32,000 nt of DNA. It comes from Candidatus Saccharimonadota bacterium. GTDB lineage: Archaea > Nanohalarchaeota > Nanosalinia > Nanosalinales > Nanosalinaceae. The notes beneath the pieces are model-generated. The model searched no databases and was not told the origin of the DNA. It saw only the letters and a list, made by a program, of their open reading frames with translations. Made by a program: the position numbers and the translations under genes. The DNA lies in contig NZ_CP180230.1 in the NCBI RefSeq assembly GCF_047555085.1, forward strand, positions 780,001-812,000. The letters are read 5' to 3'. Numbering within the stretch: the first letter of the stretch is position 1; the number at the start of each line of letters is the position of its first letter. Below, piece after piece: positions 3,192-22,957 of this stretch.

Positions 3192-4445
3192 TTACTTTTC
3201 CTGCTCTTCAGGATTTTCCTCTTCATCTTCTACTTCTTTCTCGGCCTCTTTCTGTAGATTTGGTATTACATCTTCACCAGAGGCCTTCTTTGCGACATCG
3301 TTCGGATTTACGTCAGGAGTTATATCCTCATCCTCTTTCTTCATGTTCTGGATATCTTTCCCGACATCCGAGATGAACTCCCTTGTATCTGACTTGAGCT
3401 CGTAGAGTTCTTTCTCGTCGACTTCATCCATGCTCTTTTCTCTTACCTTGGAGATGATATCATCCCATTTCTGGAACATTTCCATGTGTTCTTCTCCGAA
3501 ATCAAGATTTTCTTCAACTACTTCTGGCAGATCATCTTTGTCCTGAGGCGGTTCTACACCGTTCGACTTGAGCGCTGCAACATTTGCCTTCAGGAAGTTC
3601 TTGTAGTCATCAACTATATCTTTGACTTTCTTCCTTGCACCGAGCTGTGAGACAAGCTTGTGCATCCTGCGGACAAAATCATCTGTCTTCTCCAGGTGCT
3701 CATCCAGGGCCTCTCCTGTGACTTCTTCAGGATTTTTCTCTCCTGTATCACCGAAGTCGTAGATCTCCCTTGCTTTCTCAACGTATTCTTCTTCAAGTAA
3801 ATCTTTCTCCACGAAAAGTTCCTCTAATGTATCAGGAACTTTCTCCTTGCCTGGAGGTGTCTTTCCTACAAGCATGATAGGTGCCTGTCCGGCGTTTGCC
3901 ATGACCTGTTCAAGCTTGTGCGGGATTGAAGACTTCATATTTTTCTCGGCCTTCTTGTAGCCGGTAGCGGCCAGTTTAAGTCTTTTCTTCACCGATTCCT
4001 GGGTGCCAGAGATCTTTCCTCTTTCAAGAAGCCTCTTAGCAGGCATAAACATACCTGTATCGTATACTGCTTCTCCGTTTCTCACTGCTTCTATAGCCAG
4101 AGGCTCCCCCTTTCTGAGAGAATCCCAGAACTCTGTAAGGAACGGGAAGTACTGAATAGTAATTCTTTCATCGACTTCATCTGCCAGAGAAGTTACCTTG
4201 CGTCTTATCTTTTTCTTGGCATCCTTCGGAACATCCTTCTTCAACTTCGTATCATCCAGAATAACAAGCGTATCTATATCGCTTTCTACACCATGTTCTC
4301 CCTGCGGGACACTTCCCCAGACAGCTACAACTTTTACCTTGTCACCAAGTTTTTCATTCAACTGTTTGGAGAACTCTTCAACCGACTCAAACCTTCTTTC
4401 CTGAGACTTTTCCCTCATCTTCTTCATCTTGTCCTTGGAGCTCAT
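3192..4445 (-). CDS. Pol-beta-type nucleotidyltransferase domain protein with long helical and acidic C-terminal extension
   Basis: Motif GSVPQGEHGVESDIDTLVILDD fits the minimal nucleotidyltransferase pattern (GS...DxD). I prefer the ATG at 4445 (MSSKDKMKK...) over the track's TTG at 4532, because GTTTATAA (4480-4487, minus sense) lies about 35 nt upstream of that ATG. Confidence 0.7.
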   Translation of the reverse strand: MSSKDKMKKMREKSQERRFESVEEFSKQLNEKLGDKVKVVAVWGSVPQGEHGVESDIDTLVILDDTKLKKDVPKDAKKKIRRKVTSLADEVDERITIQYFPFLTEFWDSLRKGEPLAIEAVRNGEAVYDTGMFMPAKRLLERGKISGTQESVKKRLKLAATGYKKAEKNMKSSIPHKLEQVMANAGQAPIMLVGKTPPGKEKVPDTLEELFVEKDLLEEEYVEKAREIYDFGDTGEKNPEEVTGEALDEHLEKTDDFVRRMHKLVSQLGARKKVKDIVDDYKNFLKANVAALKSNGVEPPQDKDDLPEVVEENLDFGEEHMEMFQKWDDIISKVREKSMDEVDEKELYELKSDTREFISDVGKDIQNMKKEDEDITPDVNPNDVAKKASGEDVIPNLQKEAEKEVEDEEENPEEQEK

Positions 4446-4530
4446 GGCAGATACACAGACAAGGATTTCCTGACGAGGCTTATAAACCTTAACAAATCCA
4501 TCTACAGAGCCTGAAACCTGATTTAACGGC

Positions 4531-4549
4531 AAAAGAAAAACTGAGGCCT
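4531..4549 (-). terminator. Putative archaeal oligo-T terminator after the 803-aa gene (minus sense TAGAGGCCTCAGTTTTTCTTTT)
   Basis: T-tract TTTTTCTTTT (4531-4540, minus sense) lies immediately downstream of the stop codon and an AGGCCT copy. The next gene has its own TATA-like element. Confidence 0.45.
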
Positions 4550-6961
4550 CTAACGATACTGCTCATTCAGCCATTCGCCAGGCCTTGTGCCGCTGTCAGT
4601 AGCTGCTCTGCCGGAGTAAGTATGATCAAAGCTTTCTGCCTCAAGGAGGCCTTGAAGAGGATCGAAAGCATGTTCCTCTATCTTCGTCCACTCCATGTTG
4701 GTGCTTGATTGATCTAGGCCGAAAAATCTTGCTATCAGGGCCTGTTTCCTGTTCTCGTACTCGCCGTCGTCGGGCACCTTCACCGGATCAAGATCGTCTG
4801 GCTCTACACCAAGCTCTATAAGATCCATAGCGATCCTTGTAGTGTAAAGCGTCTCAGCGTACTCTCCTCCGATCTCGAACATTACTATGCCTTCAGAGTC
4901 TTCACCGTCATTCCTGCAGAATCCTGCATCCACCATCATATACAGGTATCTGTAAAGCACTGTATCCCCTCTCATGAACGGTCCATGCCTGTGGATACCC
5001 TGCTGTTCAAATCCAGGCTTTGTAAGGTGGTAAGTCTTCAGTATATCAGCAAGAGGCTTCTCCTTGTCTATATCAAATCTTTCATCTTCAGCAAGAGCCT
5101 TCTCCTGATCAACAAGCTTCTGCAGCTCGACTTCAGGATCTACACCGAAACTGGCAGTATGCTCAAGGTCGACGGTGAACTTCAGAGGATTACCTCTGTA
5201 CTCTCCCTCCCATTCTTCACTCTCATTCCTGGCAGTAAGATTTACCGCCCTGCATGCCACTGCAATATCTTTAGGCCTCCATAATCGAAGCAAGTTCCCT
5301 GGATCACCGTACATGGCCTCTATATTTGTCTTCAGGCCATGCTTGTTCATCCACTGTATCCACGTCATGTTCTCTTCTGGCTCAAGGCCTGTATTTTTAT
5401 CTCCGTCGAACGTGTCTTCCCTCTGAGTGAACTGCCCCCATAGATAAGTTGCAGCGACAGCAGCAGTAATATCCAGTCTGAACTCTCTATCCGAATCCAG
5501 ACGCTCCTTCACTTCACTGTATTCGCTGAAGTCCAAATCATAATTATTCTCTACAATCGTCTCCCATATGAACTTAGGAGCCTCAAAGCTAGGATGATTC
5601 TCGTATTCTTTATCAGCAACTGTAAGCCAGGCAGGAATAATGTTGTAAAATACCGTCGATTCTTTCTCCATCTGTCTACCTATCTGCGTCCTGTCAATGA
5701 GGCGATGGAAAAGCTCAAGATATTTTTCTTCACCGCTCTCATCCGTATACTCCTCATAGGCCTTCTCATACCCTGAAAATACTTTTTTCGCCTTCTCCCT
5801 CATTGCATCAGTATCCGCCTCATCCGCTATATCCTGCTGCTGTATATCCAGTCTGTTAGTTAATGCAGAGACCTTTGCCTGGAAAGAAAGGCCTTTGTCA
5901 TTCCCATTGCCCGTCCAGAGCTTGTTCATCACAGAATTGATTGCCGAAAGAATCACCTTCCTGTCATTTTCAGAGAGGCCTTCATCATTCTGTATCTCGT
6001 AAACATTCTCGGCTAGCTGACGAACATTAGGCGTTCTACCAGCATATGCCTGAATAGCAGTTTCAAGCACCGCAACAGACTCAGGATCTTCTGTGTTAAC
6101 AGGCCTATGTGACAAGTCTACAGGCCTTTCAAGCTCTTTCTCCCCGATTTTCTCCCTGTAAATCAGAGATATTCCCTGATCTATGCCGGCTCCTGTCTCG
6201 ACAAGAGAGGCCTTGCCTCTTATGTCTCCTGAAAGCCTCTCAGCGTAAAGATCGTTGGCTACTTCGTCTCTGGCGTCACGCCATTCTTTTTCGAACCAGT
6301 CAGAGTACTCTCCGAACATTCCATAAAGCTGTATTGGCTCGATGTTTTCTGCGATAAGGTAGTCAAACAGTAGCTCCATGAACTCTTTATTTCTGTAGAT
6401 ATTAGGTTCCTTGTTATCTTTTACTTCCGTTATAGACTGTCCAAATGGATCAAGAGACTTGTCAGATGCAATCTGCTCTTCCAGAGGCGGTATCTGCTCT
6501 GTTGAAGCATGCATATTGACATAGCCTACGCTGAAGCCGTATTCATCTTCAACCTGTTTTTTGAAGCTTGCTAACTGATCCAGATATCTTGTAAAATATC
6601 TGTGGACAACATTATATCCTGCCTGAACCCCCTGTGCTCTTGTAGCATACGCTGCTCCGTATCCAAGATCTGTATTTCCGTGGAACGTGACATCTACTCC
6701 CAGCTGACCTACAACATTCAGTATATCCTCTCTGTCAACCTGAAAAGTTGCAGGATTCTGTAGAAGAACTTCAAGTACCTCTCCACCTTTCTGGGCCGTA
6801 CTTCCTATTCTCTGGGCTAGAGGGCCTGGCTCCTGCCCTACATCCATTCCTGTCGTGTTACCGACAAGATAGTTCATATCGTTGAACTTCGGGCCGTCTT
6901 CTTCATCCTCATTTTCCTTGAGTTTGTCCATAAAGTTCAGCAGGAAAGACATAGCGATCAC
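4550..6961 (-). CDS. Large (about 800 aa) protein; motif pattern suggests a xylose isomerase/endonuclease IV-like TIM-barrel metalloenzyme with a very large insertion
   Basis: Ordered motifs: VDVTFHGN, VGYVNMHAS, then a long insert, then TNIEAMYG, FTVDLEHTASFGVDPE, TYHLTKPG...GIHRHGPFMRGD and VMFEIGGE. This resembles the H/H/E/DxxH/H/H/E metal-ligand layout of the AP_endonuc_2-type barrel. Start is either GTG 6961 (GTGA overlap with the upstream stop) or ATG 6952. Confidence 0.75.
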   Translation of the reverse strand: MIAMSFLLNFMDKLKENEDEEDGPKFNDMNYLVGNTTGMDVGQEPGPLAQRIGSTAQKGGEVLEVLLQNPATFQVDREDILNVVGQLGVDVTFHGNTDLGYGAAYATRAQGVQAGYNVVHRYFTRYLDQLASFKKQVEDEYGFSVGYVNMHASTEQIPPLEEQIASDKSLDPFGQSITEVKDNKEPNIYRNKEFMELLFDYLIAENIEPIQLYGMFGEYSDWFEKEWRDARDEVANDLYAERLSGDIRGKASLVETGAGIDQGISLIYREKIGEKELERPVDLSHRPVNTEDPESVAVLETAIQAYAGRTPNVRQLAENVYEIQNDEGLSENDRKVILSAINSVMNKLWTGNGNDKGLSFQAKVSALTNRLDIQQQDIADEADTDAMREKAKKVFSGYEKAYEEYTDESGEEKYLELFHRLIDRTQIGRQMEKESTVFYNIIPAWLTVADKEYENHPSFEAPKFIWETIVENNYDLDFSEYSEVKERLDSDREFRLDITAAVAATYLWGQFTQREDTFDGDKNTGLEPEENMTWIQWMNKHGLKTNIEAMYGDPGNLLRLWRPKDIAVACRAVNLTARNESEEWEGEYRGNPLKFTVDLEHTASFGVDPEVELQKLVDQEKALAEDERFDIDKEKPLADILKTYHLTKPGFEQQGIHRHGPFMRGDTVLYRYLYMMVDAGFCRNDGEDSEGIVMFEIGGEYAETLYTTRIAMDLIELGVEPDDLDPVKVPDDGEYENRKQALIARFFGLDQSSTNMEWTKIEEHAFDPLQGLLEAESFDHTYSGRAATDSGTRPGEWLNEQYR

Positions 6962-8607
6962 TTCATAGTAAACAGGCCGAAGCCGATCTTCAGATCATAG
7001 TAGTACCTGAACTTCATCTCATGCTCCATATCAGCCCATGCTGTGCTTTCATCAACCAGATATTTATCCACCTGGCCTGTAAAGAGTTTAAGCTTCCTTT
7101 CTATACCCTGATAGAAATCAGGTCCGCCGCTTTCCGAATCCTCGTGGAATTCAGTGTCCAAGACTTCATCTAGGGCCTTTAACTGATCATCATTGAATAC
7201 AACATCCAGTTCATCCAGTCCGTCTTCCACCCTTCTGATACGTGAAGATACCTCCAGAGGGATTTGCTCGCCAATCTCTTCTTCTAGGGCCTCTCTCAGC
7301 TCCCTGACCGACATATCTTTTTCATGCCTGGCATCTTTCAGTTTCTTTCCTTTCTTGGTATCAATATTTCCTTTGTAGTCCTGAAGCTTCAGTTTCAAGT
7401 CTTTCTCAACTTCATCAATACGTTCCTTGAAAATATTCTCAAAGACAAACTTGTCGACAATCGCCGGATGCCAGAAAACCTTCGCTACAGAAGGCCCCTG
7501 CTTCGGATCAGTCGGCTCCTCACCACCGGCCAAGTTCGCATGCACCTGATGCAGAAAAATCACTCTGTAATGAGTGATCTCATCCTCATCATCCGTTACA
7601 ACTATGTCTTCTCCGGTATTCTTCAGGCCTCTGTAAATTATATATTCTCTTTCAGTAAACAGCGAGCTGTATCCCCGTAGCTGTATATGCCTCCGCATGT
7701 CAGAGGCCAGTTCCTCCTGAGACTTGTTGTTAATCATCTCCATATCCCGTACGTACGGCTCCAAATAATCCTCAGTCTCTTCTATAGCTCTCTCAATTCC
7801 TTTCAGCTCTCCTTTCAGCTCTTCAAGCTTCCTCTGAATCTCACTGCCGTACATGTCCTTCCATTTCTCGTACATCGCATACTTCTTCTTCAGAATCGCC
7901 TTAACGTTCGCTGGAAGATGAGCAAGCTTTCCATCCTCCAGATCCTCTTCATCCTTATCCTCGTACTTCTTTGCCTTATCCTCGGCAGACATCAGATCCT
8001 CCGTGGAATCCATCTCGTTGAAGTCAGCGACTATAGAAGGATACAGATTCTGATCACGCAGGAACTTAAGAGAAGCTCTATCGCCTCCCTGGCCTCCCGA
8101 AGCACCGGCTCCATCAACCAGTTCGACGAAGTCAGCCTTTATCCGGGTTTCGTTCCCTTCCTCGATGTCCTCTATGCGGGAACGGAGCTTCCTTATATCA
8201 TGTTCAAGCATATGCTTCTGTTTCAGAAGCTCCGAAAGATTACGCTTAGTCTCTTTTACACGTTGCTCCGCATTCTGATGCTGCTGCATCAACTGATTAT
8301 GCAACTGGCTGTCAGGAGAGACATAAACACTTTCCTCAACCTTTTCGGCAGTATAGTTAAGATCATCAGCGAACTTGTCAACAGAATTAATAACCATCCC
8401 ATAAGGGACTCCTCCACGTGTATTGGACTTTACCTTGATCGACTTCCACTGCTCTCCCATCAGACCTTTTATCGATCCTGGACCATCATCACTCCTTACA
8501 TCCTCCAAGGTCTCGATCTTGCCGCTGCGTACAGCTTTTTCCCACGGCGAACCGTTAGAGGTCTTGAAAACATATCCAAAACCCGGATGATCTTTTGAGT
8601 CTGACAC
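6958..8607 (-). CDS. 549-aa acidic coiled-coil protein, function unknown; first gene of a two-gene operon
   Basis: Long ORF with acidic composition. GTG start at 8607 with ATTTTAAG (8633-8640, minus sense) about 26 nt upstream. Central heptad-rich regions and a Gly-rich patch GAGASGGQGGD. Stop overlaps the start of the next gene. Confidence 0.78.
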   Translation of the reverse strand: MSDSKDHPGFGYVFKTSNGSPWEKAVRSGKIETLEDVRSDDGPGSIKGLMGEQWKSIKVKSNTRGGVPYGMVINSVDKFADDLNYTAEKVEESVYVSPDSQLHNQLMQQHQNAEQRVKETKRNLSELLKQKHMLEHDIRKLRSRIEDIEEGNETRIKADFVELVDGAGASGGQGGDRASLKFLRDQNLYPSIVADFNEMDSTEDLMSAEDKAKKYEDKDEEDLEDGKLAHLPANVKAILKKKYAMYEKWKDMYGSEIQRKLEELKGELKGIERAIEETEDYLEPYVRDMEMINNKSQEELASDMRRHIQLRGYSSLFTEREYIIYRGLKNTGEDIVVTDDEDEITHYRVIFLHQVHANLAGGEEPTDPKQGPSVAKVFWHPAIVDKFVFENIFKERIDEVEKDLKLKLQDYKGNIDTKKGKKLKDARHEKDMSVRELREALEEEIGEQIPLEVSSRIRRVEDGLDELDVVFNDDQLKALDEVLDTEFHEDSESGGPDFYQGIERKLKLFTGQVDKYLVDESTAWADMEHEMKFRYYYDLKIGFGLFTMK

Positions 8608-8632
8608 ATTTGAAGTATGGTATTAAATACTA

Positions 8633-8640
8633 CTTAAAAT
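8633..8640 (-). promoter_or_regulatory. TATA-like box (ATTTTAAG, minus sense) for the 549-aa/803-aa operon
   Basis: AT-rich octamer about 26 nt upstream of the GTG at 8607, within a 110-nt divergent intergenic region. Confidence 0.4.
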
Positions 8641-8717: not shown

Positions 8718-9203
8718 ATGAGAGACAAACTGCTTAAAAGAAAACTGAATCCGTTCCTGCTTGTTACAACAGTTATGGTGCTTGCAATACTTGCAGGCCT
8801 GTCAGTCATGTACCAGCAGGAGCTTGGAGAGCTTGTAGGAACAAAAGATAATCTCAGCACCCAGTTAAAGGACACAGAGGCAGAGCTGGAACAGGCCCAG
8901 CAGAATATTACACGTCTAAGAGACACCAGAGACAGATTGAACAGCGAGATATCAAATCTCAGCACCACACTTGAAAACGTGAGAGAATCCAAAAACAGCG
9001 AGATATCAGGCCTTGAAGACGATCTTCAACAGGCCCGTAACGAAAGAGATAGCTGGCGAGAGAGATTCGAGGAGACAAACAGCTCTCTTGAACAGGTCAA
9101 AACTGAAAGAGATGAGCTGCTTTTCAGTCTTGAGCTCGTATGCAGCGATCTAAATGAATCAGCAAGCTCGTTCGAAGAATGCGAGGCACGTGGTTTCAGC
9201 TAA
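8718..9203 (+). CDS. Membrane-anchored coiled-coil protein
   Basis: N-terminal hydrophobic helix FLLVTTVMVLAILAGLSVM followed by about 110 aa of heptad-like acidic sequence. Stop is 3 nt before the next gene. Confidence 0.65.
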   Translation: MRDKLLKRKLNPFLLVTTVMVLAILAGLSVMYQQELGELVGTKDNLSTQLKDTEAELEQAQQNITRLRDTRDRLNSEISNLSTTLENVRESKNSEISGLEDDLQQARNERDSWRERFEETNSSLEQVKTERDELLFSLELVCSDLNESASSFEECEARGFS

Positions 9204-9206
9204 ATC

Positions 9207-9971
9207 ATGAAAGTAGAGAAACTTCTCCGGCGGCTGAAAATCGAGTTCGTGAAGGTGAACATCCTTCAGGCATGTCTAGACTCCATAATGTTCTTCCTTG
9301 GATTCAATCTTGTTCTTTACGTCTTCAATCTGGAGATAACAGGCCCTTACTCGAATTTTCACATACTTGTAGGCCTTACAGGAGCTTTTTTCCTTGGAGA
9401 TCTTATTTACCGTGTCAGAAAATATAATGTAGAGCTTTACGAGGAGAAAAATCCCGAGCTGGATGAGATACTGAGAACTGCGCGCGACAATATCGACCGC
9501 AAGAATATCGCGTCACAGGCCCTATTCGATGAGCTTGTAGATCGTGCCAGAAACGTGACATCAGAAAGTATTATACCAAGCCAGGAGATAATCAAGAAAG
9601 TCATGGCCATCGGAATACTCAGTTTCCTTACTCTTGCTTCAGGCCTTGCGGATTTCCAGATAGAAGGTCCCAGCGGAGAAATCGTGCCTTCAGACTTTGA
9701 ACTTCCAGGTACTGAAACAGGTCAAAACACGAGTGAACTGGATGTAAGGAACGGATCAAATATTCTTGGCGAACCATCCGATATCGATGTCGAGCAGAGG
9801 GATCTGGAGTTCGAGATCTCCGGCAACGGAAAGGCCTCTGATCAGCAGTTCTCATTCAGTTCAGGCAGCGAAGACTTCACTGTAGAGTCGTCCAGACAGG
9901 GCCTTGGTGAGGATCGTGAACTGGCGAAGCAGTACAGCAACGCCTTGCGGGAAATCGAGGCCTCTGAATAG
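9207..9971 (+). CDS. Integral membrane protein, function unknown, immediately upstream of moxR
   Basis: Two N-terminal TM helices, a helical soluble segment, a third TM helix (VMAIGILSFLTLASGL) and an acidic tail. Confidence 0.7.
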   Translation: MKVEKLLRRLKIEFVKVNILQACLDSIMFFLGFNLVLYVFNLEITGPYSNFHILVGLTGAFFLGDLIYRVRKYNVELYEEKNPELDEILRTARDNIDRKNIASQALFDELVDRARNVTSESIIPSQEIIKKVMAIGILSFLTLASGLADFQIEGPSGEIVPSDFELPGTETGQNTSELDVRNGSNILGEPSDIDVEQRDLEFEISGNGKASDQQFSFSSGSEDFTVESSRQGLGEDRELAKQYSNALREIEASE

Positions 9972-10002
9972 GAATTTAAATCTAGAAGAGTATTGTTAAG
10001 GT

Positions 10003-10971
10003 ATGAGCCTTGTAGGGACCGTGGATAATGCCGAGAAGTACAGGAAGTTGAATCAGAAAATCGAGGAGATTAAGAACGAGATCGGCAAGGTTATAGTTGG
10101 ACAGGAGGAGGTGATAGACCAGGTCATCGCCTCGATACTTTGTGATGGAAACATTCTGCTTGAATCAAATCCTGGTATGGGAAAGACGAAGATGGTACAT
10201 ACTCTTTCCAACGTTATAGGCCTGGATTTCTCCCGTATACAGGCTACACCGGATCTTATGCCTAGCGATATCACAGGGACACATATAATCGAGGAGACTG
10301 AGACAAGTACAGACTTTGTCTTCCAGAAAGGCCCTATATTTGCGAACATGGTGCTGGTGGACGAAATCAATCGAGCTACTCCGAAAACACAGTCCGCATT
10401 ACTGGAAGCTATGCAGGAGAAGCAGGTAACAGTAGGAAATCAGAGCTACAATCTTGATACACCGTTTTTCCTTATCGCCACGCAGAATCCGCTGGAACAG
10501 GAGGGAACATATCCGCTTCCAGAGGCCCAGAGAGACCGTTTCATGATGAAGATACATCTGGACTACCCTGACACAAACGAGGAAAGAGAGATCGTAAACC
10601 GTTTCACAAACGAACTTGACTTTTCTCCAGAACTTAACCAGGTAGTATCACAGGCCTCTGTGACAAAGATGCAGGAGTTCACAAGAGAAGTCCCTATCGC
10701 AGACGACATACGTGACAGAGCTATAAGGATAGTCAAGAGAACACGTAAAAATGATAAATTAGATTATGGTGCCTCTCCAAGGGCCTCAATCCAGTTGATA
10801 CTTGCTGGAAAAGCTAAAGCTCTTGTGGAGGGCAGAAACCATGTTTCAAACCAGGATATCAACGAAATGGCAAAACCCGTTCTCAGGCACAGGATAGGCC
10901 TGACTTTCCAGGCCGAGAAGGAAGGCCCGGATGCAGATCAAGTCATTGAAAATATTACGAACCGCGTATGA
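10003..10971 (+). CDS. moxR: MoxR-family AAA+ ATPase
   Basis: Walker A NPGMGKT, Walker B LVDEINRA, and GTYPLPEAQRDRF. 322 aa, the typical MoxR size. Confidence 0.93.
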   Translation: MSLVGTVDNAEKYRKLNQKIEEIKNEIGKVIVGQEEVIDQVIASILCDGNILLESNPGMGKTKMVHTLSNVIGLDFSRIQATPDLMPSDITGTHIIEETETSTDFVFQKGPIFANMVLVDEINRATPKTQSALLEAMQEKQVTVGNQSYNLDTPFFLIATQNPLEQEGTYPLPEAQRDRFMMKIHLDYPDTNEEREIVNRFTNELDFSPELNQVVSQASVTKMQEFTREVPIADDIRDRAIRIVKRTRKNDKLDYGASPRASIQLILAGKAKALVEGRNHVSNQDINEMAKPVLRHRIGLTFQAEKEGPDADQVIENITNRV

Positions 10972-11825
10972 TTCAACTAGATTACCTCGAGGAGCTGGAA
11001 AGATTTCAGCTGGCATTAAAACGTAATGCCTCCAGTATACAGAGTGGAGAGCATAAAAGCCCTCAGACAGGCCAGGGAATGGTATTCAAGGACCATAAAG
11101 AGTACATTCCTGGTGATGATATCAGGAAGATTGACTGGAAGGCCTATGCCCGTACAAAAGATTTTTTCGTGAAGCGTTTCGAGGAAGAGCGGCGTTTGAA
11201 CATACATATTCTTCTTGATCGAAGTAGCTCGATGGATTACGGGAATGTGAACAAGTACGAGTTCTCCGCAAAGCTTGGACTCGGGGTTGCGAAGATGAGT
11301 ATGAATACTAACGACAAGTTCAACTACTCGATTTTCTCCGAGACATTGACGAATATTTCCTCCGGGAGGCGTACAAACAATATCAGCGAGCTTGTTGAGG
11401 TTCTGAACAATACGCGTAAAACTCCTGAAAGCCGTATAGAGGACTGTATCACAGAGTATAGTGACAGGATTCAGAACGAGTCCGCAGTTATAATTTTCTC
11501 AGATTTCCTGGCTGATCCTGAAAAAGTAGAGGCCGGTATCGAAAGTTTGAAGCATACAAAACCGATCATAGTCAATGTTCTTGATTCCTCCGAGCTTGAT
11601 CCCGATTTTGAAGGAGATAAAATTCTGAAGGATCCCGAGTCTTCCTCGAAGTTGAGGACTTTTCTTTCACGGAAGACACGGCAGGACTACCGTAGCAAGA
11701 TGGAGGAACATGTGCAGGAGCTGGAAGAGATTTCCAGGCGGAACGGTGCAGAATTTATACAGGCCTCTACAGAGGACGATATCTTCCAGGTGCTTTTAAG
11801 CATCTGGGAAAAACTCAACAACTAG
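10968..11825 (+). CDS. DUF58-family protein (vWA-like partner of MoxR)
   Basis: Hallmark IPGDDIRKIDWKAYARTKDFFVKRFEEE, then ILLDRSSSM (MIDAS-like). ATGA overlap with the moxR stop. Confidence 0.87.
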   Translation: MIQLDYLEELERFQLALKRNASSIQSGEHKSPQTGQGMVFKDHKEYIPGDDIRKIDWKAYARTKDFFVKRFEEERRLNIHILLDRSSSMDYGNVNKYEFSAKLGLGVAKMSMNTNDKFNYSIFSETLTNISSGRRTNNISELVEVLNNTRKTPESRIEDCITEYSDRIQNESAVIIFSDFLADPEKVEAGIESLKHTKPIIVNVLDSSELDPDFEGDKILKDPESSSKLRTFLSRKTRQDYRSKMEEHVQELEEISRRNGAEFIQASTEDDIFQVLLSIWEKLNN

Positions 11826-11827
11826 TA

Positions 11828-12568
11828 ATGGATATCCAAGACTTTGAAACAGTAGATAGTATTCCTGCACTTTACCACCCGGATCTTGATCTTCTTGTTT
11901 TATCCGATCTTCATCTGGGCCTGGAAGGTAGTATGACCTCGGAAGGAGGTTACGTGCCGAAGTTCAATCTTGACGATGTCTTGGAGGAGATCGAGAAGGC
12001 TCGAAGCAGTACAGGAGCCTCCCGGGTACTTGTGAACGGCGACCTGAAGAACGAGTTCAGAAAGAGTTACTACAGTGAAAAAGAAGAAGTCAAGAAACTT
12101 GTCCAGCACCTGAAAAGACGCTTTAACGAAGCTATAATTGTAGAGGGCAACCACGACCAGTTCATTGAGAAAACTGTAGAGGATGAAGGCCTTGAGATGC
12201 ACGATTACTATCTGGAGGATGGCGTACTTTTCGTCCATGGAGACAGAAAGATAGAGGAAATAGAGGAAGGCCTGGAGTACAGTACAGTTGTTATAGGTCA
12301 TGAGCATCCATCACTTTCACTGAAAGATGAGATAGGTGTAGTAGAGAAAGTTGATTGCTTTCTTTACGGAGAAACAGAAGACGGCAAAAACATCATTGTT
12401 CTGCCAGCATTCTCCAACATCTCCAGCGGCACGCGTATAAACGAGACACCTCAGAGAGAGCTTCTATCGCCTATACTAAAAGAGAAAGTTGATGTGAAAG
12501 GCCTGAAAGCTATCGCTGTATCACGCGAAGCAGGCCTCTTCGACTTCCCGGAAATAGGAAAGCTCTAG
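11828..12568 (+). CDS. Calcineurin-like metallophosphoesterase (archaeal SbcD-related / MJ0037-like type)
   Basis: Motifs LSDLHLG, NGDLKN, EGNHD and GHEHP in canonical order. Confidence 0.85.
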   Translation: MDIQDFETVDSIPALYHPDLDLLVLSDLHLGLEGSMTSEGGYVPKFNLDDVLEEIEKARSSTGASRVLVNGDLKNEFRKSYYSEKEEVKKLVQHLKRRFNEAIIVEGNHDQFIEKTVEDEGLEMHDYYLEDGVLFVHGDRKIEEIEEGLEYSTVVIGHEHPSLSLKDEIGVVEKVDCFLYGETEDGKNIIVLPAFSNISSGTRINETPQRELLSPILKEKVDVKGLKAIAVSREAGLFDFPEIGKL

Positions 12569-14762: not shown

Positions 14763-15509
14763 CTAAACAAGATTTTCAAGGCCTTTTACTTCAGGAGCAT
14801 CCTGACTGTAGCCCGGGAATCTAGGCATCTCGACCTCAAGATCTTTAGGCCCGGCAGTGTAGACGACTGTTTCCTCATCGCGTCCTATACAGACTACTCC
14901 TGTAACCCCGTCCACGTCGACAGGATTCAAAGTATTTTCTGACTGGAACTCTCTGTACTGTTCAGAGGCCTCCGGATCACCGGTGTACGTGAAAAATATC
15001 TGGAATCCAAGCTGATCCTCGAAGTCGCTGTAGGCCTGAAGCAGTTCATCTGATTCGATGTACCTGTTTTCAAATCCTGTGTCCATACGGACGTTCTCAC
15101 TTCGGAACTCGGGATGAGTTCTCAGGCCTTGATCCACATCTCTGACCTCTTCAAGACATGCATCAAGATTGGCAAGTTTCAGCGGAGCCGAGAAAAAATC
15201 AACATTATCAGAATCTGCTCCGAAGAACTCCCTGTAAAACTCGGCGTGCCTTTCACCTTTACTGGCTGACACAGTATTTTTTCTACTGTCCAGAACACCA
15301 CCATCAAGCTGTCCGCCATCTCTGAACACTCCTGCGATCTGGAGATTGTCCAGGCGAGGCATCAACCGTTCAACGCTGGAGGCCTCAACTACTCTTCCCT
15401 GTCCTGTTACATCCAGTGCAATCTCAGCCTCATCGTGTGCATAAGAATTCTCTACAACCCATTCGAAGAGCTCATCAGTATCAGGCCTCTCTACAGTCAT
15501 CTCCGGCAT
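14763..15509 (-). CDS. Acidic hypothetical protein (about 248 aa)
   Basis: Long ORF with acidic composition and no motif I recognise. I prefer the ATG at 15509 over the track's TTG at 15515. Confidence 0.68.
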   Translation of the reverse strand: MPEMTVERPDTDELFEWVVENSYAHDEAEIALDVTGQGRVVEASSVERLMPRLDNLQIAGVFRDGGQLDGGVLDSRKNTVSASKGERHAEFYREFFGADSDNVDFFSAPLKLANLDACLEEVRDVDQGLRTHPEFRSENVRMDTGFENRYIESDELLQAYSDFEDQLGFQIFFTYTGDPEASEQYREFQSENTLNPVDVDGVTGVVCIGRDEETVVYTAGPKDLEVEMPRFPGYSQDAPEVKGLENLV

Positions 15510-15588
15510 ATTCAAGAATGCTTTACTTACTGTGAAGTATCTTTCGCAGCGGTGAGAGATTAAAAGATTTCACTGATAAAACACCGTT

Positions 15589-15941: not shown

Positions 15942-18059
15942 TCAGTGGAAGCCTTCAAAGGCCTCCTCAGCTTTCTCCTCCTCTTCAGCCATCTTATCTC
16001 GGAACCTGTCTACAGCAGCTTCAATCTTCTCCGAAAATGCTGAAACGGCAGGAATCTGAGGCAATTCAAGGCCTCTAGGAATCTGAAGATCAAGATCTCT
16101 TCTGTCGCTTGTATACAGGAATGCTCCTCCTGCACCGCCTATAATCACAAGGCCTAGCAACATCATCATCAATGTCTGTCGGAACTCGTTGGATTCATGC
16201 TGTTTTTTCACTTCTTCTACAGTTGAAGAAGCTGACTGATAGCTTGACTCAAGGCCTTCAACAACTGAAAGCGCTCTATGATACTCGCCGCTTTCCTGGA
16301 ACTGCTCAGCTCTCTCCACCATCTCCACGAATTCTGAAGTCCCGGATTCAAGAGAACTATCAAGCTCCCCGTTGATACCGGAACTTCGAAGGCTGGAAAT
16401 ATTTGACTCAATCTCCGCTAAGCGGGAAGAATAAGTCTCAATCCTGCTATCAACTTTCTCCCTCTGAGCGCTGTTAGCCTTCACAAGAATCTCCACCGAA
16501 TCAGAAGCCGAAGGACTATCAGACTCAAAAGTTGCATTCCAGAGGCCTGTCTGATTCTCGGAAGGAGAGATCTCGAACTCTGCATTAGCTGAATCACCTT
16601 CCTCTAGGCCTTCAACAGTCTTTGTGCCTTCGAAAAGCTGCGAAGAAGCCGTTACTTCAACAGATTCTACAAGAAGCTTCCCTGTATTCTCAACTACAAC
16701 ATCAATATTTCCTGTGCTTCCAGCCTCTACCGAAAAATTATCAGAGGCCTCCAGAGCAATCCTTGGTGTCGCATCAGGATGGTACTCGAAATCAATAGAT
16801 CTCACATCACTCCAGTGCCCCACACGATCACGCGCACGGACATAGACAGTCTGCTGAGTATCCTCACTGTCAAGCAAAGCAGTATCAACAGTGAAACGCC
16901 CTTCCCCATCGTACTCAACAGTATTTCCATCTCCTTCGCTTGTACCAGCGTAGAAGAAATACTCCAGCTCCTGAACTCCAGAAGCCGAGTCAGAGGCCTC
17001 GTAAGTAACATCAAAATCATCACTGTAAACTTTGTAATCCCTTGCTGCCTCAAAATTTTCAAGCACAGGATCAGAGGAATCAAAAGTATAAAATCTTTCA
17101 TCAGACTCCGCACAGTTACCTGCACGATCACAGGCCTCTACACTCACGTCTACTGTATCATCATCGACTTCCTCAGAAGGAATCTCACATGAGAAATCTT
17201 CCTCATCATCCCAGTCAGTTGTAGAAACTTCATCGCCGTCTACAAGACACTTCACCTGCACATCGCTCTCCTCCTCATCAATATTCCCTACAGTTACATC
17301 AAGGCCTACATCCCCGTTCAGATCAACATTATCGCCGTCAGCATCCTCAACAGTAAATTCAGGATCATCCGCCTGGAATTCATTATCGAAAGTTAAAGTT
17401 GGATTAGACTCTCCAGAGTTACCTACTTGATCAACCGCCTCAAGATTGAGAGAAATTTCGTACCCGATATTAAGATTATCAGTATCCAAGTCAAATTCTT
17501 TGAGACATCTACTTCCGGACGAACAGTCAACATCCTTTTCATCAAGAATATCTGTATTATCTGCATATGCAGATAGATCATCAATATTGCTGTATTCATC
17601 TTCAGCTAAAACAGTTATAGAAGGATTGTCACTGACAAAATCCAAATCACCATCTTGAAGAGAAACAGATGGAGGGCCCTGATCTTTTGTTAGATCAATC
17701 TCGGCTAGCTCAATCTCACTGGTACCGTCTGTGAGATTAGCTCTAATAGTATACTGCCCACTACCTTCATCACTCAACTGTGCTGTCCAGTAATTTCTAT
17801 CCCCCCCAGAGTAACTTTCTGGGGAACTATCTGTATCAAACTGCGTCCAGTCGTCCTGGCCTTGATCGCTCCAATAGAAAATCACTTCTGAACCTGTTCC
17901 TGACTCATGTGTTACGTTAAGAGTGTAATCAGAACCTATGACTGTATCAGCATTAGAAGGGGAATCCCAGTCAAGTGCTGCTGCGTTTCCGATTACTAGT
18001 GTTGTGAAAATTAGAGTGATTGCTACTTTGAGCGCTTTCTGGCCTTTGATACTTATCAC
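15942..18059 (-). CDS. Type-I membrane surface protein with several Ig-like/CARDB-like beta domains, coiled-coil stalk, C-terminal TM anchor and acidic cytoplasmic tail
   Basis: Signal-peptide-like N-terminus (KGQKALKVAITLIFTTLVIGNAAA). Recurrent motifs AVDQVGNSGES, ACDRAGNCAES and ARDRVGHWSDV. VVVENTGKLLVESVEV is CARDB-like. TM anchor LMMMLLGLVIIGGAGGAFLY. GTG start. Confidence 0.8.
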   Translation of the reverse strand: MISIKGQKALKVAITLIFTTLVIGNAAALDWDSPSNADTVIGSDYTLNVTHESGTGSEVIFYWSDQGQDDWTQFDTDSSPESYSGGDRNYWTAQLSDEGSGQYTIRANLTDGTSEIELAEIDLTKDQGPPSVSLQDGDLDFVSDNPSITVLAEDEYSNIDDLSAYADNTDILDEKDVDCSSGSRCLKEFDLDTDNLNIGYEISLNLEAVDQVGNSGESNPTLTFDNEFQADDPEFTVEDADGDNVDLNGDVGLDVTVGNIDEEESDVQVKCLVDGDEVSTTDWDDEEDFSCEIPSEEVDDDTVDVSVEACDRAGNCAESDERFYTFDSSDPVLENFEAARDYKVYSDDFDVTYEASDSASGVQELEYFFYAGTSEGDGNTVEYDGEGRFTVDTALLDSEDTQQTVYVRARDRVGHWSDVRSIDFEYHPDATPRIALEASDNFSVEAGSTGNIDVVVENTGKLLVESVEVTASSQLFEGTKTVEGLEEGDSANAEFEISPSENQTGLWNATFESDSPSASDSVEILVKANSAQREKVDSRIETYSSRLAEIESNISSLRSSGINGELDSSLESGTSEFVEMVERAEQFQESGEYHRALSVVEGLESSYQSASSTVEEVKKQHESNEFRQTLMMMLLGLVIIGGAGGAFLYTSDRRDLDLQIPRGLELPQIPAVSAFSEKIEAAVDRFRDKMAEEEEKAEEAFEGFH

Positions 18060-19429: not shown

Positions 19430-20854
19430 TTAATCCTCGTCCCTGACTTCCTCAAAACGTTCGATCGCAGTCTTTCTTTTCTCATCGTGATCAACGATAG
19501 GCCTTGGATAATCCTCACCGATCTCGACACCGCAATCCTCCTGTTGGAGCTTGTTCATCTCGTGAGGCCTGTGAATATGTTCATCGGGAACGTCTTCCAG
19601 CTCCGGCACCCATTTCCGGATGTACTCGCCATCAGGATCGTAGTCCTCTCCCTGAGAAAACGGATTAAAGACTCTGAAGTACGGCTGGGCGTCGGTACCG
19701 ATTGAATAGGCCCATTGGATCCCTCCTATCATTGAGGCGATCTCTGCATCCACAAAATTCTCGTTGAAGAACTCATGCAGGTCCTTCCAGTCCAGCCACA
19801 GATCCTTGCATGCAAAGCTTGTGACAACCATACGTAGACGGTTGTGCATCCATCCCGTCTTCTTCAACTGACGCATACCGGCGTCGACAAACGGATAACC
19901 TGTCTTGCCGTTGATAAAGGCCTTCCAGTCCTCCTTGGCCTCTTCTTTACTCCTCCATTCGATTTCCTCGTACTGTTCTAGGAAAGGCCTCTCCGCTGAC
20001 TCCGGCCAGTTCCAGAGTACCTGCATGTAGAAGTCGCGCCACGCTAGCTCTTCCTGCCAGGTCTTGATGCCCGAAGTATCGTCGTTGGGATTTCTGGCTT
20101 TCATTCTTTCGGCCTCCCAGAACACCTCTCTGATCGAAACAGTTCCGAACTTGAGATGCGGAGAAAGCTTACTCGTGGAGTCTTTCCAGGCATAGTCTCT
20201 GTTCTCGTCGTAGTTCCATATCTTGTCCTTGAAGGCCTCTATCCTGTCTTTTGCGCCTTCTCTCGAAGGATCCCAGTTCCATTCAAAATCTTCAGGCCTT
20301 TCAAATCCTAGCTCTTTCAGCGAAGGAATTTCATCGCTTTCGACATCAGGAACTTCATATTCTTCGACGTCCTGAGGCCTTCTATGCTCTTTTTTGAACC
20401 ATTTCTTGCTGTAGTAAGTGTAGACTTTGTAAGGAGTACCTGAATTCGTTAAAATTTCTTCCTTCTCGGACATGACGATGTCTTTGAAAGTTTTGACTGG
20501 AACATTAAGGCCTTCTTCGATTTTCTCGTCTCTTTCTCTGCTATACGGCGTGTAATCCCTGTTGTGGTATACTGCATCTGCATCGACTTCATCTACTATT
20601 TTTTCCAGTTCTTCCAGCGGCTTTCCTTTCCTGACTACAAGATCTTTACTCTCTTCGCCTCCAAGTTTTTCCTTGAAATTCTGTAACGCATCGTGCCAGA
20701 ACTTAACTCTTGGATAGCCGAGGGAGGCTTTTTTGAAGTAGTTATCATCCACTACGTAGAAAGGGATTACTTCATCGTGTTTTTTCGAGGCCTCTACAAG
20801 TGCTGTATTGTCGTATTCTCTCAGGGATCTGCGGATCCAGACTATCGCTGTCAC
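19430..20854 (-). CDS. phr: Deoxyribodipyrimidine photolyase / cryptochrome-family flavoprotein
   Basis: Motifs WIRRSLREYDNTAL, TSKLSPHLKFGTVSIREV, WRDFY, GWMHNRLRMVVTSF and GGIQW. GTG start. Confidence 0.95.
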   Translation of the reverse strand: MTAIVWIRRSLREYDNTALVEASKKHDEVIPFYVVDDNYFKKASLGYPRVKFWHDALQNFKEKLGGEESKDLVVRKGKPLEELEKIVDEVDADAVYHNRDYTPYSRERDEKIEEGLNVPVKTFKDIVMSEKEEILTNSGTPYKVYTYYSKKWFKKEHRRPQDVEEYEVPDVESDEIPSLKELGFERPEDFEWNWDPSREGAKDRIEAFKDKIWNYDENRDYAWKDSTSKLSPHLKFGTVSIREVFWEAERMKARNPNDDTSGIKTWQEELAWRDFYMQVLWNWPESAERPFLEQYEEIEWRSKEEAKEDWKAFINGKTGYPFVDAGMRQLKKTGWMHNRLRMVVTSFACKDLWLDWKDLHEFFNENFVDAEIASMIGGIQWAYSIGTDAQPYFRVFNPFSQGEDYDPDGEYIRKWVPELEDVPDEHIHRPHEMNKLQQEDCGVEIGEDYPRPIVDHDEKRKTAIERFEEVRDED

Positions 20855-21541: not shown

Positions 21542-22957
21542 TCAGTCTTTGATTGTGCTCCTATTAAATATTGCCAGAACCGGCAGCATCTCCAGTCTAC
21601 CTGCCACCATTGCCACTGTAAGAATGATTTTAGAGACTACAGAGGCCTCTGAAAGAAGCGAATCGGTGAATATCGGCCCCATATTCCCTATAGTTGAGAA
21701 AGCTACAGATACAGCGCCTTTGAAACTGTATCCTTCAAGGCCTACAAGCGAGATAGCTATCAGAAAAGAAACTGATATCCACGTAAAGAAAAGCACCGAT
21801 ACAGTCTTGACTGTTGAACTATCAAGTATCTCCCCATCTATCTTAACTTTATTTACAGCTGTATCAGGGAGAGAATAGGCCTTTAATCTAGTTTTCAGCA
21901 TCTCCAGCATTGTTTTTATCCTGAATATTTTGAGGCCTCCTGCTGTAGATCCTACTGATCCTCCTACAAACATGACTGCGAGGAGCATGATCTGTACTGC
22001 CGGTGCAGCTACCATGATATCTATAGTGGCGAATCCTGTGGAGGATATGAATGCTGCACTCTGGAAAGCTCCATGGAGCACAGGATCAGCTGTTTTACCG
22101 ATTAAATCGAATGTCAGTACTGCTGTAACAACAGCGAATATGGAGAGATACAACTTGAATTCCGAGTTGTTTCTCAGAGGCCTGTAATCTGATCTAAGTA
22201 CTCTGTAAAGTATTACGAAGTTGATTCCTCCAAGAAGCATGAAAAGCGTTGAAATGGCCTGTATCTGTGGCGTGTATACTGCGAAGCTTGCTCCCTGAGT
22301 GGAGAATCCTCCTGTTGAAAGTGTTGAGAAAGCGTGTATAACTGCCTGGAATACAGGCATCTTTGATGCAACGAACAGGCCTATTAGAAGCGTCGTAAGG
22401 AATCCGTATACTCTCCACAGATCGATTACTGATTTCTTGAGCGAAGGCCTTATGCTTCCTGGATCTGTTTTATGAGCTTCTGCGGAGAAAAGCCGCTGTG
22501 AAATACCTCCTGACTGCTTCAGTACTGCTATGAAAAATGTCAGTATGCCGAGGCCTCCTATCCATTGCATGAAGCTTCTCCAGAAAAGTATCGAGTGCGG
22601 AAGATTTTCTGGTGCAGAAAAAATGGATATGCCTGTTGTTGTGAGGCCTGAAGCTGCTTCAAAAATAGCATCGGCCACAGGAAGGTATTCTGTCAGCGGT
22701 ATCGATCCCAGAAGTATCGCCGAGGCCCATCCAAGCAAGGTAAGTATGATGGCCTCCTGGACAGAGGGATCTCCAGTAGATCCGTAACGATGCATCAATG
22801 TTCCTGCTACAAGACTCAGAAGAGACGTTCCTGTGAAAAGGTAGAAGTTGAGAGCTTTCTCAGGGTATACAAGTGTAAGAACTGCAGGGAGAAAAGTAAG
22901 GACTGCGTATATCTGCAGGAATCTTCCAAGCACCCCCATCAATAGGCCTCTCCGCAT
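21542..22957 (-). CDS. trkH: TrkH-type potassium uptake membrane subunit
   Basis: Four pore-loop-like motifs (GLTTTGIS, LSTGGFST, SSTGFAT, TIGNMGP) within a polytopic membrane protein of 471 aa. Confidence 0.93.
   Translation of the reverse strand: MRRGLLMGVLGRFLQIYAVLTFLPAVLTLVYPEKALNFYLFTGTSLLSLVAGTLMHRYGSTGDPSVQEAIILTLLGWASAILLGSIPLTEYLPVADAIFEAASGLTTTGISIFSAPENLPHSILFWRSFMQWIGGLGILTFFIAVLKQSGGISQRLFSAEAHKTDPGSIRPSLKKSVIDLWRVYGFLTTLLIGLFVASKMPVFQAVIHAFSTLSTGGFSTQGASFAVYTPQIQAISTLFMLLGGINFVILYRVLRSDYRPLRNNSEFKLYLSIFAVVTAVLTFDLIGKTADPVLHGAFQSAAFISSTGFATIDIMVAAPAVQIMLLAVMFVGGSVGSTAGGLKIFRIKTMLEMLKTRLKAYSLPDTAVNKVKIDGEILDSSTVKTVSVLFFTWISVSFLIAISLVGLEGYSFKGAVSVAFSTIGNMGPIFTDSLLSEASVVSKIILTVAMVAGRLEMLPVLAIFNRSTIKD

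Follow-up and report, generated by a model that had tools for sequence, protein, structure and literature searches.

A gene pair conserved in Nanohaloarchaeota and Aenigmatarchaeota: a remote member of the xylose-isomerase-like/AP endonuclease 2 superfamily, its helical partner and an associated nucleotidyltransferase

We analysed a stretch of 32,000 nucleotides (nt) (hereafter the window; coordinates are counted from its first letter) that spans positions 780,001 to 812,000 of NZ_CP180230.1 (assembly GCF_047555085.1), a nanohaloarchaeal contig of ~1.05 Mb. Two long, adjacent minus-strand open reading frames (ORFs) of this window encode proteins of 549 and 800 amino acids (aa), and a preliminary description had presented them as a stand-alone operon for a lineage-specific structural or enzymatic complex, with neither protein recognisable as a known family. 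The pair is conserved in two archaeal phyla, where a nucleotidyltransferase gene regularly accompanies it. The larger protein is a remote member of the xylose-isomerase-like/AP endonuclease 2 (PF01261) superfamily of triosephosphate isomerase (TIM) barrels, as established transitively from the sequences of its relatives, and its family has conserved the residues that correspond to most zinc ligands of endonuclease IV.

The gene pair and its conservation

The pair, the third gene and the signals around them are as follows.

6958..8607, minus strand: gene 1, partner protein of 549 aa; ORF with a GTG start at 8607 and a TGA stop at 6958-6960
4550..6952, minus strand: gene 2, putative TIM-barrel metalloenzyme of 800 aa from ATG 6952; ORF with a TAG stop at 4550-4552
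6956..6961, minus strand: GTGATC, inferred to be Shine-Dalgarno-like; overlaps the gene 1 stop, 3 nt before ATG 6952
8621..8640, minus strand: A/T-rich, TATA-like stretch ATTTTAAGTAGTATTTAATA, 14-33 nt upstream of GTG 8607, read from the sequence
4531..4540, minus strand: T-tract TTTTTCTTTT, candidate archaeal terminator 9 nt past the TAG stop (4552-4550), read from the sequence
4480-4486: TATA-like TTTATAA before the third gene, read from the sequence
3192..4445, minus strand: third gene, Pol-beta/MNT-type nucleotidyltransferase (PF01909) with a helical, HEPN-derived C-terminal part, 417 aa from ATG 4445

ORFs of 549 and 800 codons are far longer than expected by chance, and both proteins have full-length homologues down to ~37-45% identity; those of the large protein fall into 50 clusters and those of the small protein into more than 178, and all that carry a name are Nanohaloarchaea. 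The two ORFs lie as first described: at their junction (...ATGAAG TGA TCGCT ATG) the GTG at 6961-6959 overlaps the stop codon of gene 1, and ATG 6952 follows 5 nt past the TGA. If GTG 6961 were used, gene 2 would encode 803 aa (ORF 4550..6961). ATG 6952 is the likelier start, because the public gene call for the barrel protein (P0001) is 800 aa long and because GTGATC, 3 nt before this ATG, matches GGAGGTGATC, which we take to be the anti-Shine-Dalgarno complement of archaeal 16S 3' ends; GTG 6961 probably belongs to the ribosome-binding site. Whichever start is used, the arrangement predicts that the two genes are translationally coupled.

The TATA-like box and the T-tract that the preliminary description had assigned to the pair are both present, and the stretch ATTTTAAGTAGTATTTAATA would suit an archaeal promoter with a short leader or none. 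Because the T-tract and TTTATAA lie between genes 2 and 3, the sequence suggests that the pair forms one transcript and the transferase gene another. A scan for promoters and terminators of the bacterial type gave counts equal to the shuffled expectation, and its bacterial signal models are uninformative for an archaeon. Neither protein contains a Walker A motif, and neither is predicted to have a transmembrane segment, since the maximal 19-residue Kyte-Doolittle mean is merely 0.73-0.74; both points agree with the preliminary description.

Conservation of the arrangement was examined at ten other loci around barrel-family genes (L001, L003, L004, L005 and L007-L012), which come from Nanohaloarchaeota and Aenigmatarchaeota. 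A homologue of the partner protein is encoded immediately upstream of the barrel gene, on the same strand, in nine of the ten, and in the same nine a Pol-beta/MNT-type nucleotidyltransferase gene follows downstream within one or two genes. The upstream proteins match a partner profile built from nanohaloarchaeal sequences only with E values of 1e-226 to 1.5e-7 (hmmsearch, Z=1e6). Partner and barrel genes lie -4 to +16 nt apart in the window, L001, L003, L004, L005 and L009, and the gap in L010-L012 is short too. Both families occur together on 17 or more nanohaloarchaeal contigs, for instance under the adjacent locus tags ABEJ56_00585 and ABEJ56_00590. The loci are listed below, where Trm1 stands for a Trm1-type tRNA methyltransferase gene.

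L001: partner present; transferase present, after an intervening 178-aa gene; Trm1 absent
L003: partner present; transferase present; Trm1 absent
L004: partner present; transferase present in two paralogous copies; Trm1 absent
L005: partner present; transferase present, after an intervening amylase-like gene; Trm1 present
L007: partner present; transferase present; Trm1 present
L008: partner, transferase and Trm1 all absent
L009: partner present; transferase present in two paralogous copies; Trm1 absent
L010: partner, transferase and Trm1 all present
L011: partner, transferase and Trm1 all present
L012: partner, transferase and Trm1 all present

The conserved unit consists of three genes, despite the T-tract and the TATA-like box that lie between genes 2 and 3 in the window. 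The pair is consequently not stand-alone, as it had been called: the transferase gene follows it in the window (3192-4445) and in nine of the ten other loci, including those of a second phylum. In L001 and L003, which represent two distant Nanohaloarchaea, the whole neighbourhood is syntenic with the window and the chromosomal position is fixed, with the order A-type ATP synthase, nucleotidyltransferase, large protein and small protein, followed on the divergent side by a transmembrane coiled-coil protein, DUF7502, MoxR, DUF58, a metallophosphoesterase and an MFS transporter. Judged by the named sequences, the module is restricted to Nanohaloarchaeota and Aenigmatarchaeota, and the named distant relatives of the barrel protein all belong to Aenigmarchaeota/Aenigmatarchaeota or to the deep nanohaloarchaeote QJJ-7. 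The earlier view of the pair as lineage-specific thus holds for a narrow archaeal clade and does not hold for Nanohaloarchaeota alone. Our searches of the literature yielded no account of the pair.

Fold and metal site of the barrel protein

Direct searches of Pfam, NCBIfam and the PDB with both proteins returned noise only (Apolipoprotein, FapA, GH127, Csy3 and SPX-domain, all at E>0.001). The 800-aa protein does not match PF01261 even at E<=1, and a nanohaloarchaeal barrel profile found nothing in the PDB. An exhaustive profile search of 1.84 billion representatives collected 134 clusters for the barrel family, whose members beyond Nanohaloarchaea are 500-750 aa long. Among 65 diverse family members, 30 match PF01261 (AP_endonuc_2, xylose isomerase-like TIM barrel), with a best E value of 1e-19. 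The relatives P0204, P0216, P0217 and P0225 match the nanohaloarchaeal profile with E values of 1.9e-17, 2.7e-13, 2.9e-13 and 8e-11, respectively, and score 58, 63.2, 48.8 and 68.1 bits against PF01261, the gathering threshold of which is 31.1 bits. Because relatives that match the nanohaloarchaeal profile pass the PF01261 threshold, remote membership of the 800-aa protein in this superfamily is established transitively at the level of sequence profiles.

The fold was modelled with AlphaFold2 (AF2) from 35 homologues, with a predicted local distance difference test score (pLDDT) of 83.6 and a predicted template modelling score (pTM) of 0.81. The model has eight beta strands alternating with helices and a helical insertion of ~340 residues between strands 4 and 5. 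The relatives match the barrel profile in two separate stretches as well, and their PF01261 matches are split into an N part (profile positions 7-89) and a C part (101-248). The protein can be divided into four regions.

6425..6889, minus strand: N-terminal part of the barrel, aa ~22-176, four strands; holds the ligand candidates H91 and H148
5393..6424, minus strand: mostly helical insertion of ~340 aa, aa ~177-520, placed by AF2 secondary structure and the split profile matches of the relatives
4709..5392, minus strand: C-terminal part of the barrel, aa ~521-748; holds E545, D595-x-E597-H598, H642, P646, H654-x-H656 and E693
4553..4708, minus strand: conserved C-terminal tail, aa 749-800, predicted disordered (pLDDT <50), ...EEHAFDPLQGLLEAE...RPGEWLNEQYR-COOH

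DSSP assigns the strands of the N part to residues 28-33, 59-63, 87-91 and 142-148, and those of the C part to residues 542-545, 590-595, 638-642 and 688-692, each of the latter ending at a putative ligand or one residue before it. The leading Foldseek matches in the PDB are mostly xylose-isomerase-like barrels, among them UlaE, the African swine fever virus (ASFV) AP endonuclease, ketose 3-epimerases and xylose isomerase.

Conservation was counted in an alignment of the 65 diverse barrel-family sequences, where mean column identity is 18%. H148, E545, D595, P646 and E693 are invariant in all 65; H91, H642 and H656 are conserved in 64, E597 in 63 and H598 in 59, while H654 is conserved within Nanohaloarchaea only. 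The Glu-Asp-His-Glu metal set of the superfamily (E545, D595, H642 and E693) is present, each residue, like the other putative ligands, at the C-terminal end of a predicted strand. Sugar epimerases of the PF01261 superfamily use only this E-D-H-E tetrad.

Five of the seven matches in a PDB sequence search with the family profile belong to the endonuclease IV family (Nfo/Apn1/ASFV) and are aligned motif for motif; the best are endonuclease IV of T. maritima (0.008) and the ASFV AP endonuclease (0.009), followed by APN1 and M. tuberculosis End. The motif pairs, each given as window protein/endonuclease IV, are fHG/pHD, NMHAS/NFHPG, IEA/IEN, VDLEH/IDTCH, YHL/MHL, HRHGPFxRGD/DRHHSLGEGN and FEIGG/LILET, on a TIM-barrel fold that is predicted for the window protein. 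When the columns of the insertion were removed, hhalign scored the family at 35.7 against E. coli Nfo (E 1.7e-4, 247 columns), at 21.1 against UlaE, at 20.0 against YcjR and at 11-17 against ten shuffled Nfo sequences. The zinc ligands of Nfo, whose residue types were verified in the K-12 sequence, are aligned with family residues as H69 with H91, H109 with H148, E145 with E545, D179 with D595, H182 with H598, H216 with H642, D229 with H654, H231 with H656 and E261 with E693, so that eight of the nine are identical and only D229, aligned with H654, differs. Among NCBIfam models, that of the cobamide-remodelling phosphodiesterase CbiR (NF041277) is the best family for six of ten aenigmatarchaeal relatives tested, with E values down to 5.2e-9. 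CbiR belongs to the same superfamily and shows that this type of barrel can hydrolyse phosphodiesters other than those of DNA; the relatives reach at most 36 bits against its cut-off of 105 bits, the window protein does not match it, and no cobamide context was found.

Given the PDB sequence matches, the CbiR matches, the Nfo score and the ligand mapping, we read the barrel protein as a putative multinuclear metallo-phosphodiesterase from the endonuclease IV branch rather than as a sugar isomerase. It would stand outside the Nfo family proper, because it does not pass the curated Nfo models, has three times the size and includes extra modules. The NCBIfam deoxyribonuclease IV model is not matched by the window protein, and among the relatives P0211 comes highest with 12 bits (E 0.067), where the cut-off is 376. 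Endonuclease IV is a compact single domain of ~285 aa that acts alone, whereas the window protein has 800 aa with the ~340-aa insertion and adds an invariant tail of ~50 aa and a conserved adjacent partner gene.

The tail is conserved to its last residue in all 65 members, with H761, D764 and P765 among the conserved positions and the pattern ...F(F/Y)G...EHAxDPLxGLL...(P)EEWxxEE[L/Y/F][R/K/Q]-COOH. Because this conservation runs to the free carboxyl end, it suggests that the tail docks into a partner. A proteasome-docking HbYX motif was considered and rejected, as the residue before the penultimate aromatic one is Glu or Lys and not hydrophobic. One aenigmatarchaeal member of the barrel family, P0251 (L012, 5001-6854), has an N-terminal glutaredoxin domain (Pfam E 3.4e-10) and is named 'glutaredoxin' by NCBI; this fusion may hint at redox control or redox chemistry.

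The partner protein, the nucleotidyltransferase and their surroundings

The AF2 model of the 549-aa partner has a pLDDT of 74.6. It begins with a small alpha/beta unit, followed by two long helices of ~50-60 residues (101-150 and 233-291) that flank a conserved head segment and the acidic linker and could pair as a coiled coil; further on are a four-stranded sheet (316-385), a helix-turn-helix (HTH) unit (~418-461) and a C-terminal amphipathic helix. The acidic linker and the conserved C-terminus noted in the preliminary description are borne out: the former lies at aa ~205-226, and the latter (...FRYYYDLKIGFGLFTMK) is conserved in Nanohaloarchaea at Y536, K540, G544, T547 and M548. Two regions stand out in comparisons among the partners.

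7708..8445, minus strand: conserved partner core, aa ~55-300, common to the aenigmatarchaeal partners (alignment, hhalign and hmmsearch)
7225..7356, minus strand: XRE/MBF1-like HTH sub-domain, aa ~418-461, found by Foldseek; present in Nanohaloarchaea and not conserved in aenigmatarchaeal partners

The core contains the motifs EHD-x-RK (H136, D137, R139 and K140) and DF-V-x-x-VD (F160, V164 and D165), and its other invariant residues are G66, P98, P190, F196, W249 and P284. With hhalign, the partner profile aligns with the upstream proteins of L005, L007, L004 and L009 at E values of 4e-52, 2.7e-24, 1.4e-8 and 3.1e-8, respectively. The partner is also the more basic of the two proteins, with an isoelectric point (pI) of 7.6-9.1 in non-halophilic members against 5.7-6.4 for the barrel enzyme.

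The whole partner has no significant match in the PDB, BFVD, Pfam, NCBIfam or PADLOC, with no Foldseek match at E<=0.001; the nanohaloarchaeal partner profile found nothing in the PDB, and a homology search with a wide partner alignment again recovered Nanohaloarchaea only. Foldseek matches to START/CoxG-like proteins, phage tail proteins, levivirus maturation proteins and Smc5/6 arms were set aside for their low probability. A coiled-coil ATPase of the SMC/Rad50 type was likewise rejected, as there is no Walker A motif and Foldseek finds only coiled-coil arms of Smc5/6, at E>0.3. By these searches, the partner core is without detectable relatives of known function. The early statement that neither protein is recognisable therefore holds for the partner core, for which no characterised family was found, and not for the larger protein, whose superfamily was found along with ligands of the endonuclease IV type.

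The HTH unit is the exception within the partner. It matches the N-domain of the CI repressor in the PDB (3zhi, probability 0.91, root mean square deviation (rmsd) 2.6, 70 columns) and HTH proteins in BFVD (probability 0.99, rmsd 2.2), the matches covering 63-70 residues overall. Pfam HTH_31 is matched by six of 43 partner members, weakly and below threshold (E>=0.005), and the partner does not match an MBF1 model. Because of this match of the HTH unit, the orthologues P0138, P0146, P0166 and P0327 are named 'multiprotein-bridging factor 1 family protein' or 'ribosome-binding protein aMBF1' (NCBI, JGI), and others 'helix-turn-helix domain-containing'. A segment of ~45 aa is predicted to fold like an XRE HTH, but it is a small lineage-specific insert, and the 250-aa core is unrelated to MBF1; the MBF1/aMBF1 names, which rest only on this insert, are probably misleading.

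The third gene scores 31.8 bits against PF01909 (cut-off 21), with G44, S45, D56 and D58 invariant, and its family profile matches kanamycin nucleotidyltransferase at E 1.5e-8. A HEPN match in Pfam is weak and is seen in four of nine transferase relatives. In the window and other Nanohaloarchaea, GDTGE-K stands in place of the HEPN Rx4-6H motif, which aenigmatarchaeal transferases (L004, L007 and L009) keep as RKKIEH/RKDVEH. In L004 (9950-11890) and L009 (7493-9505) the transferases are tandem paralogues of 277-292 and 368-377 aa. We also considered a class I CCA-adding enzyme and rejected it, since neither tRNA_NucTransf2 nor the NCBIfam cca model is matched and the nearest families are kanamycin nucleotidyltransferase and MNT. 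According to the part of the work available to us, CCA1 is described in DPANN genomes other than a Pacearchaeota clade (10.64898/2026.05.29.728689).

Two families from a survey of DPANN dark matter resemble components of the unit. The passages concerned list the DPANN-specific cluster cls.004259, 'MNT fused to HEPN', typically in a house-keeping context, and cls.004340, an alpha helical protein in a house-keeping context, both as priority dark-matter families (Makarova, Wolf, Koonin 2019, PMC6393860). The third gene of the window likewise combines MNT with a HEPN-like part in a housekeeping context, and the partner is likewise an alpha-helical DPANN protein in such a context, so that the third gene and the partner may belong to the same families as cls.004259 and cls.004340, respectively; those passages draw no link to a TIM-barrel enzyme.

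Several other genes were recorded near the unit. A Trm1-type tRNA methyltransferase gene (PF02005) comes after the transferase gene in five loci from lineages other than that of the window, L005 (12675-15017), L007 (7579-10670), L010 (7162-9521), L011 (7497-10029) and L012 (6856-9473), directly except in L007, where one opposite-strand gene lies between; TFIIB is close by in four of these five loci, and NurA or NYN-domain genes are near in L010 and L011. The extended synteny, which the window, L001 and L003 lack, hints at a connection with tRNA or RNA. In the aenigmatarchaeal loci L004 (4824-6201) and L009 (1861-3330), small same-strand ORFs ahead of the partner gene encode peptides of 52-60 aa with two transmembrane segments, and the opposite strand of both loci encodes a paralogous pair of 165-182-aa proteins (MPxFARxKxVxxDDCF...). 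A precursor of a ribosomally synthesised and post-translationally modified peptide was considered upstream of the pair and rejected, the small ORFs of L004 and L009 encoding membrane peptides.

Elsewhere in the window the following were noted.

8718-12568, plus strand: 161-aa transmembrane and coiled-coil protein, DUF7502, MoxR AAA+ ATPase, DUF58 and metallophosphoesterase, probably a MoxR-DUF58-type module
14763-15515, 15942-18059 and 27998-29032, minus strand: ORFs of 250, 705 and 344 aa, respectively, without a Pfam match at E<=1e-4
19430-20854, minus strand: DNA photolyase
21542-22957, minus strand: TrkH
23481-24674, plus strand: aIF2-gamma
27116-28003, plus strand: RimK-type ATP-grasp protein
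31017-31997, plus strand: Kae1/TsaD

The last five entries, from DNA photolyase to Kae1/TsaD, are ordinary chromosomal genes, and no tRNA gene was found in the 32-kb window.

Proposed function and alternatives

We tentatively propose that the pair encodes a two-subunit metallo-phosphodiesterase that would work with the nucleotidyltransferase in housekeeping processing or repair of nucleic-acid ends, a reading that we regard as a real possibility short of probable. Gene 2 would encode the catalytic subunit, an endonuclease-IV-like barrel with a two- to three-metal site formed by H91, H148, E545, D595, H598, H642, H654/H656 and E693 and with the helical insertion over the barrel. Gene 1 would encode a helical coiled-coil adaptor of basic, nucleic-acid-binding character, with an extra HTH in Nanohaloarchaea, that would be made in step with the enzyme through translational coupling, hold it through its invariant disordered C-terminal tail and target it to nucleic acid. 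The phosphodiesterase would cut or clean phosphodiester or 3'-blocked ends, to which the MNT-HEPN-type transferase would then add nucleotides. Together, the three proteins would form a module for DNA or tRNA/RNA end processing or repair, vertically inherited in Nanohaloarchaeota and Aenigmatarchaeota. The context of the genes is a housekeeping one, with a fixed locus in distant Nanohaloarchaea and no PADLOC match for either protein of the pair. In line with the complex that had been suggested for the pair, the two proteins most likely form one with an enzymatic component.

A bolder form of the proposal, which we consider doubtful, is that metallo-phosphodiesterase, transferase and adaptor make up an undescribed three-component machine that is core to both phyla, in which the adaptor would capture the enzyme by its tail (...EEWxxEE[LYF][RK]-COOH) and an essential cut-and-add reaction would take place on tRNA/RNA or DNA ends, replacing lost enzymes of repair or maturation. 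The fold and the probable chemistry are already known, whereas the insertion, the docking-like tail, the obligatory partner and the three-gene module were not found described.

Several points weigh against the end-processing proposal. The 800-aa protein of the window matches no sequence model of Pfam, NCBIfam or the PDB, and its structural matches have Foldseek E values of only 0.05-0.5 and low TM-scores, because the insertion splits the barrel. The alignment with Nfo has a probability of only 49.5%, and only after manual excision of the insertion; the untrimmed family alignment gives a probability of 1.5% against E. coli Nfo (hhalign). At the position of the ninth ligand, D229 of Nfo, Nanohaloarchaea have His and the other members vary. 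Multi-His ligand sets of this kind also occur in non-nuclease enzymes such as MNIO oxidases, so that phosphodiester chemistry does not follow from the ligands. The barrel enzyme is acidic (pI 5.7-6.4) even in non-halophilic members. As for the three-gene unit, the barrel gene of L008 lacks both neighbours, another gene lies between the pair and the transferase gene in L001 and L005, and these are kept apart in the window by the T-tract and a second TATA-like box.

The same metal-dependent phosphodiesterase chemistry might act on something other than nucleic acid, with the enzyme erasing a nucleotidyl mark that the transferase places on a protein or small molecule, or cleaving a cofactor as CbiR does, and with the partner as target or regulator. 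Transferases of the MNT-HEPN/kanamycin-nucleotidyltransferase type nucleotidylate proteins or small molecules rather than polymerise, and the transferase here is of this type, its synteny with the pair being strict; among NCBIfam families the relatives match CbiR best (E 5e-9), which is a small-molecule phosphodiesterase, and the enzyme is acidic. We nevertheless consider a non-nucleic-acid substrate unlikely, as the CbiR scores stop at 36 bits against a cut-off of 105, the PDB sequence matches and the ligand mapping favour endonuclease IV, the partner has a predicted HTH and a basic pI, and the Trm1, NurA and NYN neighbours of several loci speak for nucleic acids. A sugar or sugar-phosphate isomerase or epimerase of symbiont carbohydrate metabolism, with the helical protein as an unrelated neighbour or a scaffold, would have the commonest activity in PF01261. 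Many top Foldseek matches are ketose 3-epimerases, UlaE and xylose isomerase, weak NCBIfam matches include hydroxypyruvate isomerase and L-ribulose-5-P 3-epimerase, JGI calls two relatives 'sugar phosphate isomerase/epimerase', and a pullulanase/amylase-like gene lies inside the L005 cluster. Such enzymes (UlaE, D-psicose/D-tagatose 3-epimerase, YcjR and hydroxypyruvate isomerase) have the E-D-H-E core and the predicted fold in common with the window protein, but they are single-gene enzymes of ~260-300 aa and lack the additional conserved histidines; the extra H91, H148, H598 and H656, conserved in 59-65 of the 65 sequences, form the endonuclease IV pattern, Nfo outscores UlaE and YcjR against the family profile, and neither the window nor most loci offer a sugar-metabolism context, which together make an isomerase quite unlikely.

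The conserved histidines and the adjacent partner gene could also be read as those of an MNIO-like enzyme (DUF692/MbnB-type), a multinuclear iron oxidase for the modification of a peptide or protein, with the helical protein as its obligatory substrate-binding partner. MNIO enzymes (MbnB, TglH and ChrH) have a multinuclear site with a multi-His/carboxylate set on a related TIM barrel and typically an always-adjacent partner gene, and the aenigmatarchaeal glutaredoxin fusion hints at redox chemistry. This we think very unlikely: PF05114 does not appear among the families that the 65 members match, while 30 of them match PF01261; the window holds no precursor peptide candidate and no small same-strand ORF between 8608 and 8717, while the small upstream ORFs of L004 and L009 encode the two-transmembrane peptides; the distribution is that of a syntenic core gene and not of a sporadic biosynthetic cluster; and many of the carriers are likely anaerobes. 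That the pair is purely structural, a cytoskeleton-like or attachment complex with a catalytically dead barrel as its scaffold, would fit the long coiled-coil regions of gene 1, the large helical insertion of gene 2 and the large coding investment for a genome of ~1 Mb. It is highly improbable, since dead enzymes lose their ligands, whereas this family keeps five putative ligands or neighbouring residues without exception and another four at >90%, across two phyla at ~20% identity, and no transmembrane segment or signal sequence is present. That the three genes are a mobile defence or toxin-antitoxin-like system with the MNT-HEPN protein at its centre is scarcely credible. MNT and HEPN modules are typical of such systems, and the transferase matches the PADLOC candidate family PDC-S09 through its MNT domain, but the pair has no PADLOC match, its position next to the ATP synthase is fixed in distant Nanohaloarchaea, housekeeping genes surround it, Nanohaloarchaea have lost the HEPN Rx4H motif, and the DPANN MNT-HEPN family is described, in the passage concerned, as 'typically in house-keeping context' (PMC6393860).

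DPANN archaea have tiny genomes in which a large share of the genes is uncharacterised, and essential, lineage-defining functions are best sought among large, universally kept genes that are syntenic across two phyla. For the pair described here, two 'hypothetical proteins' that occupy ~4 kb of a ~1-Mb genome are turned into a testable hypothesis with nine named active-site residues, a partner and a third component, and the misleading database names of the partner ('MBF1 family', 'ribosome-binding protein aMBF1') are corrected. If the proposed role in end processing or repair is true, the module would fill a gap in the reduced repertoire of DNA/RNA maintenance of these symbionts, and it would represent a new elaboration of the endonuclease IV barrel by an insertion, a docking tail and an adaptor.

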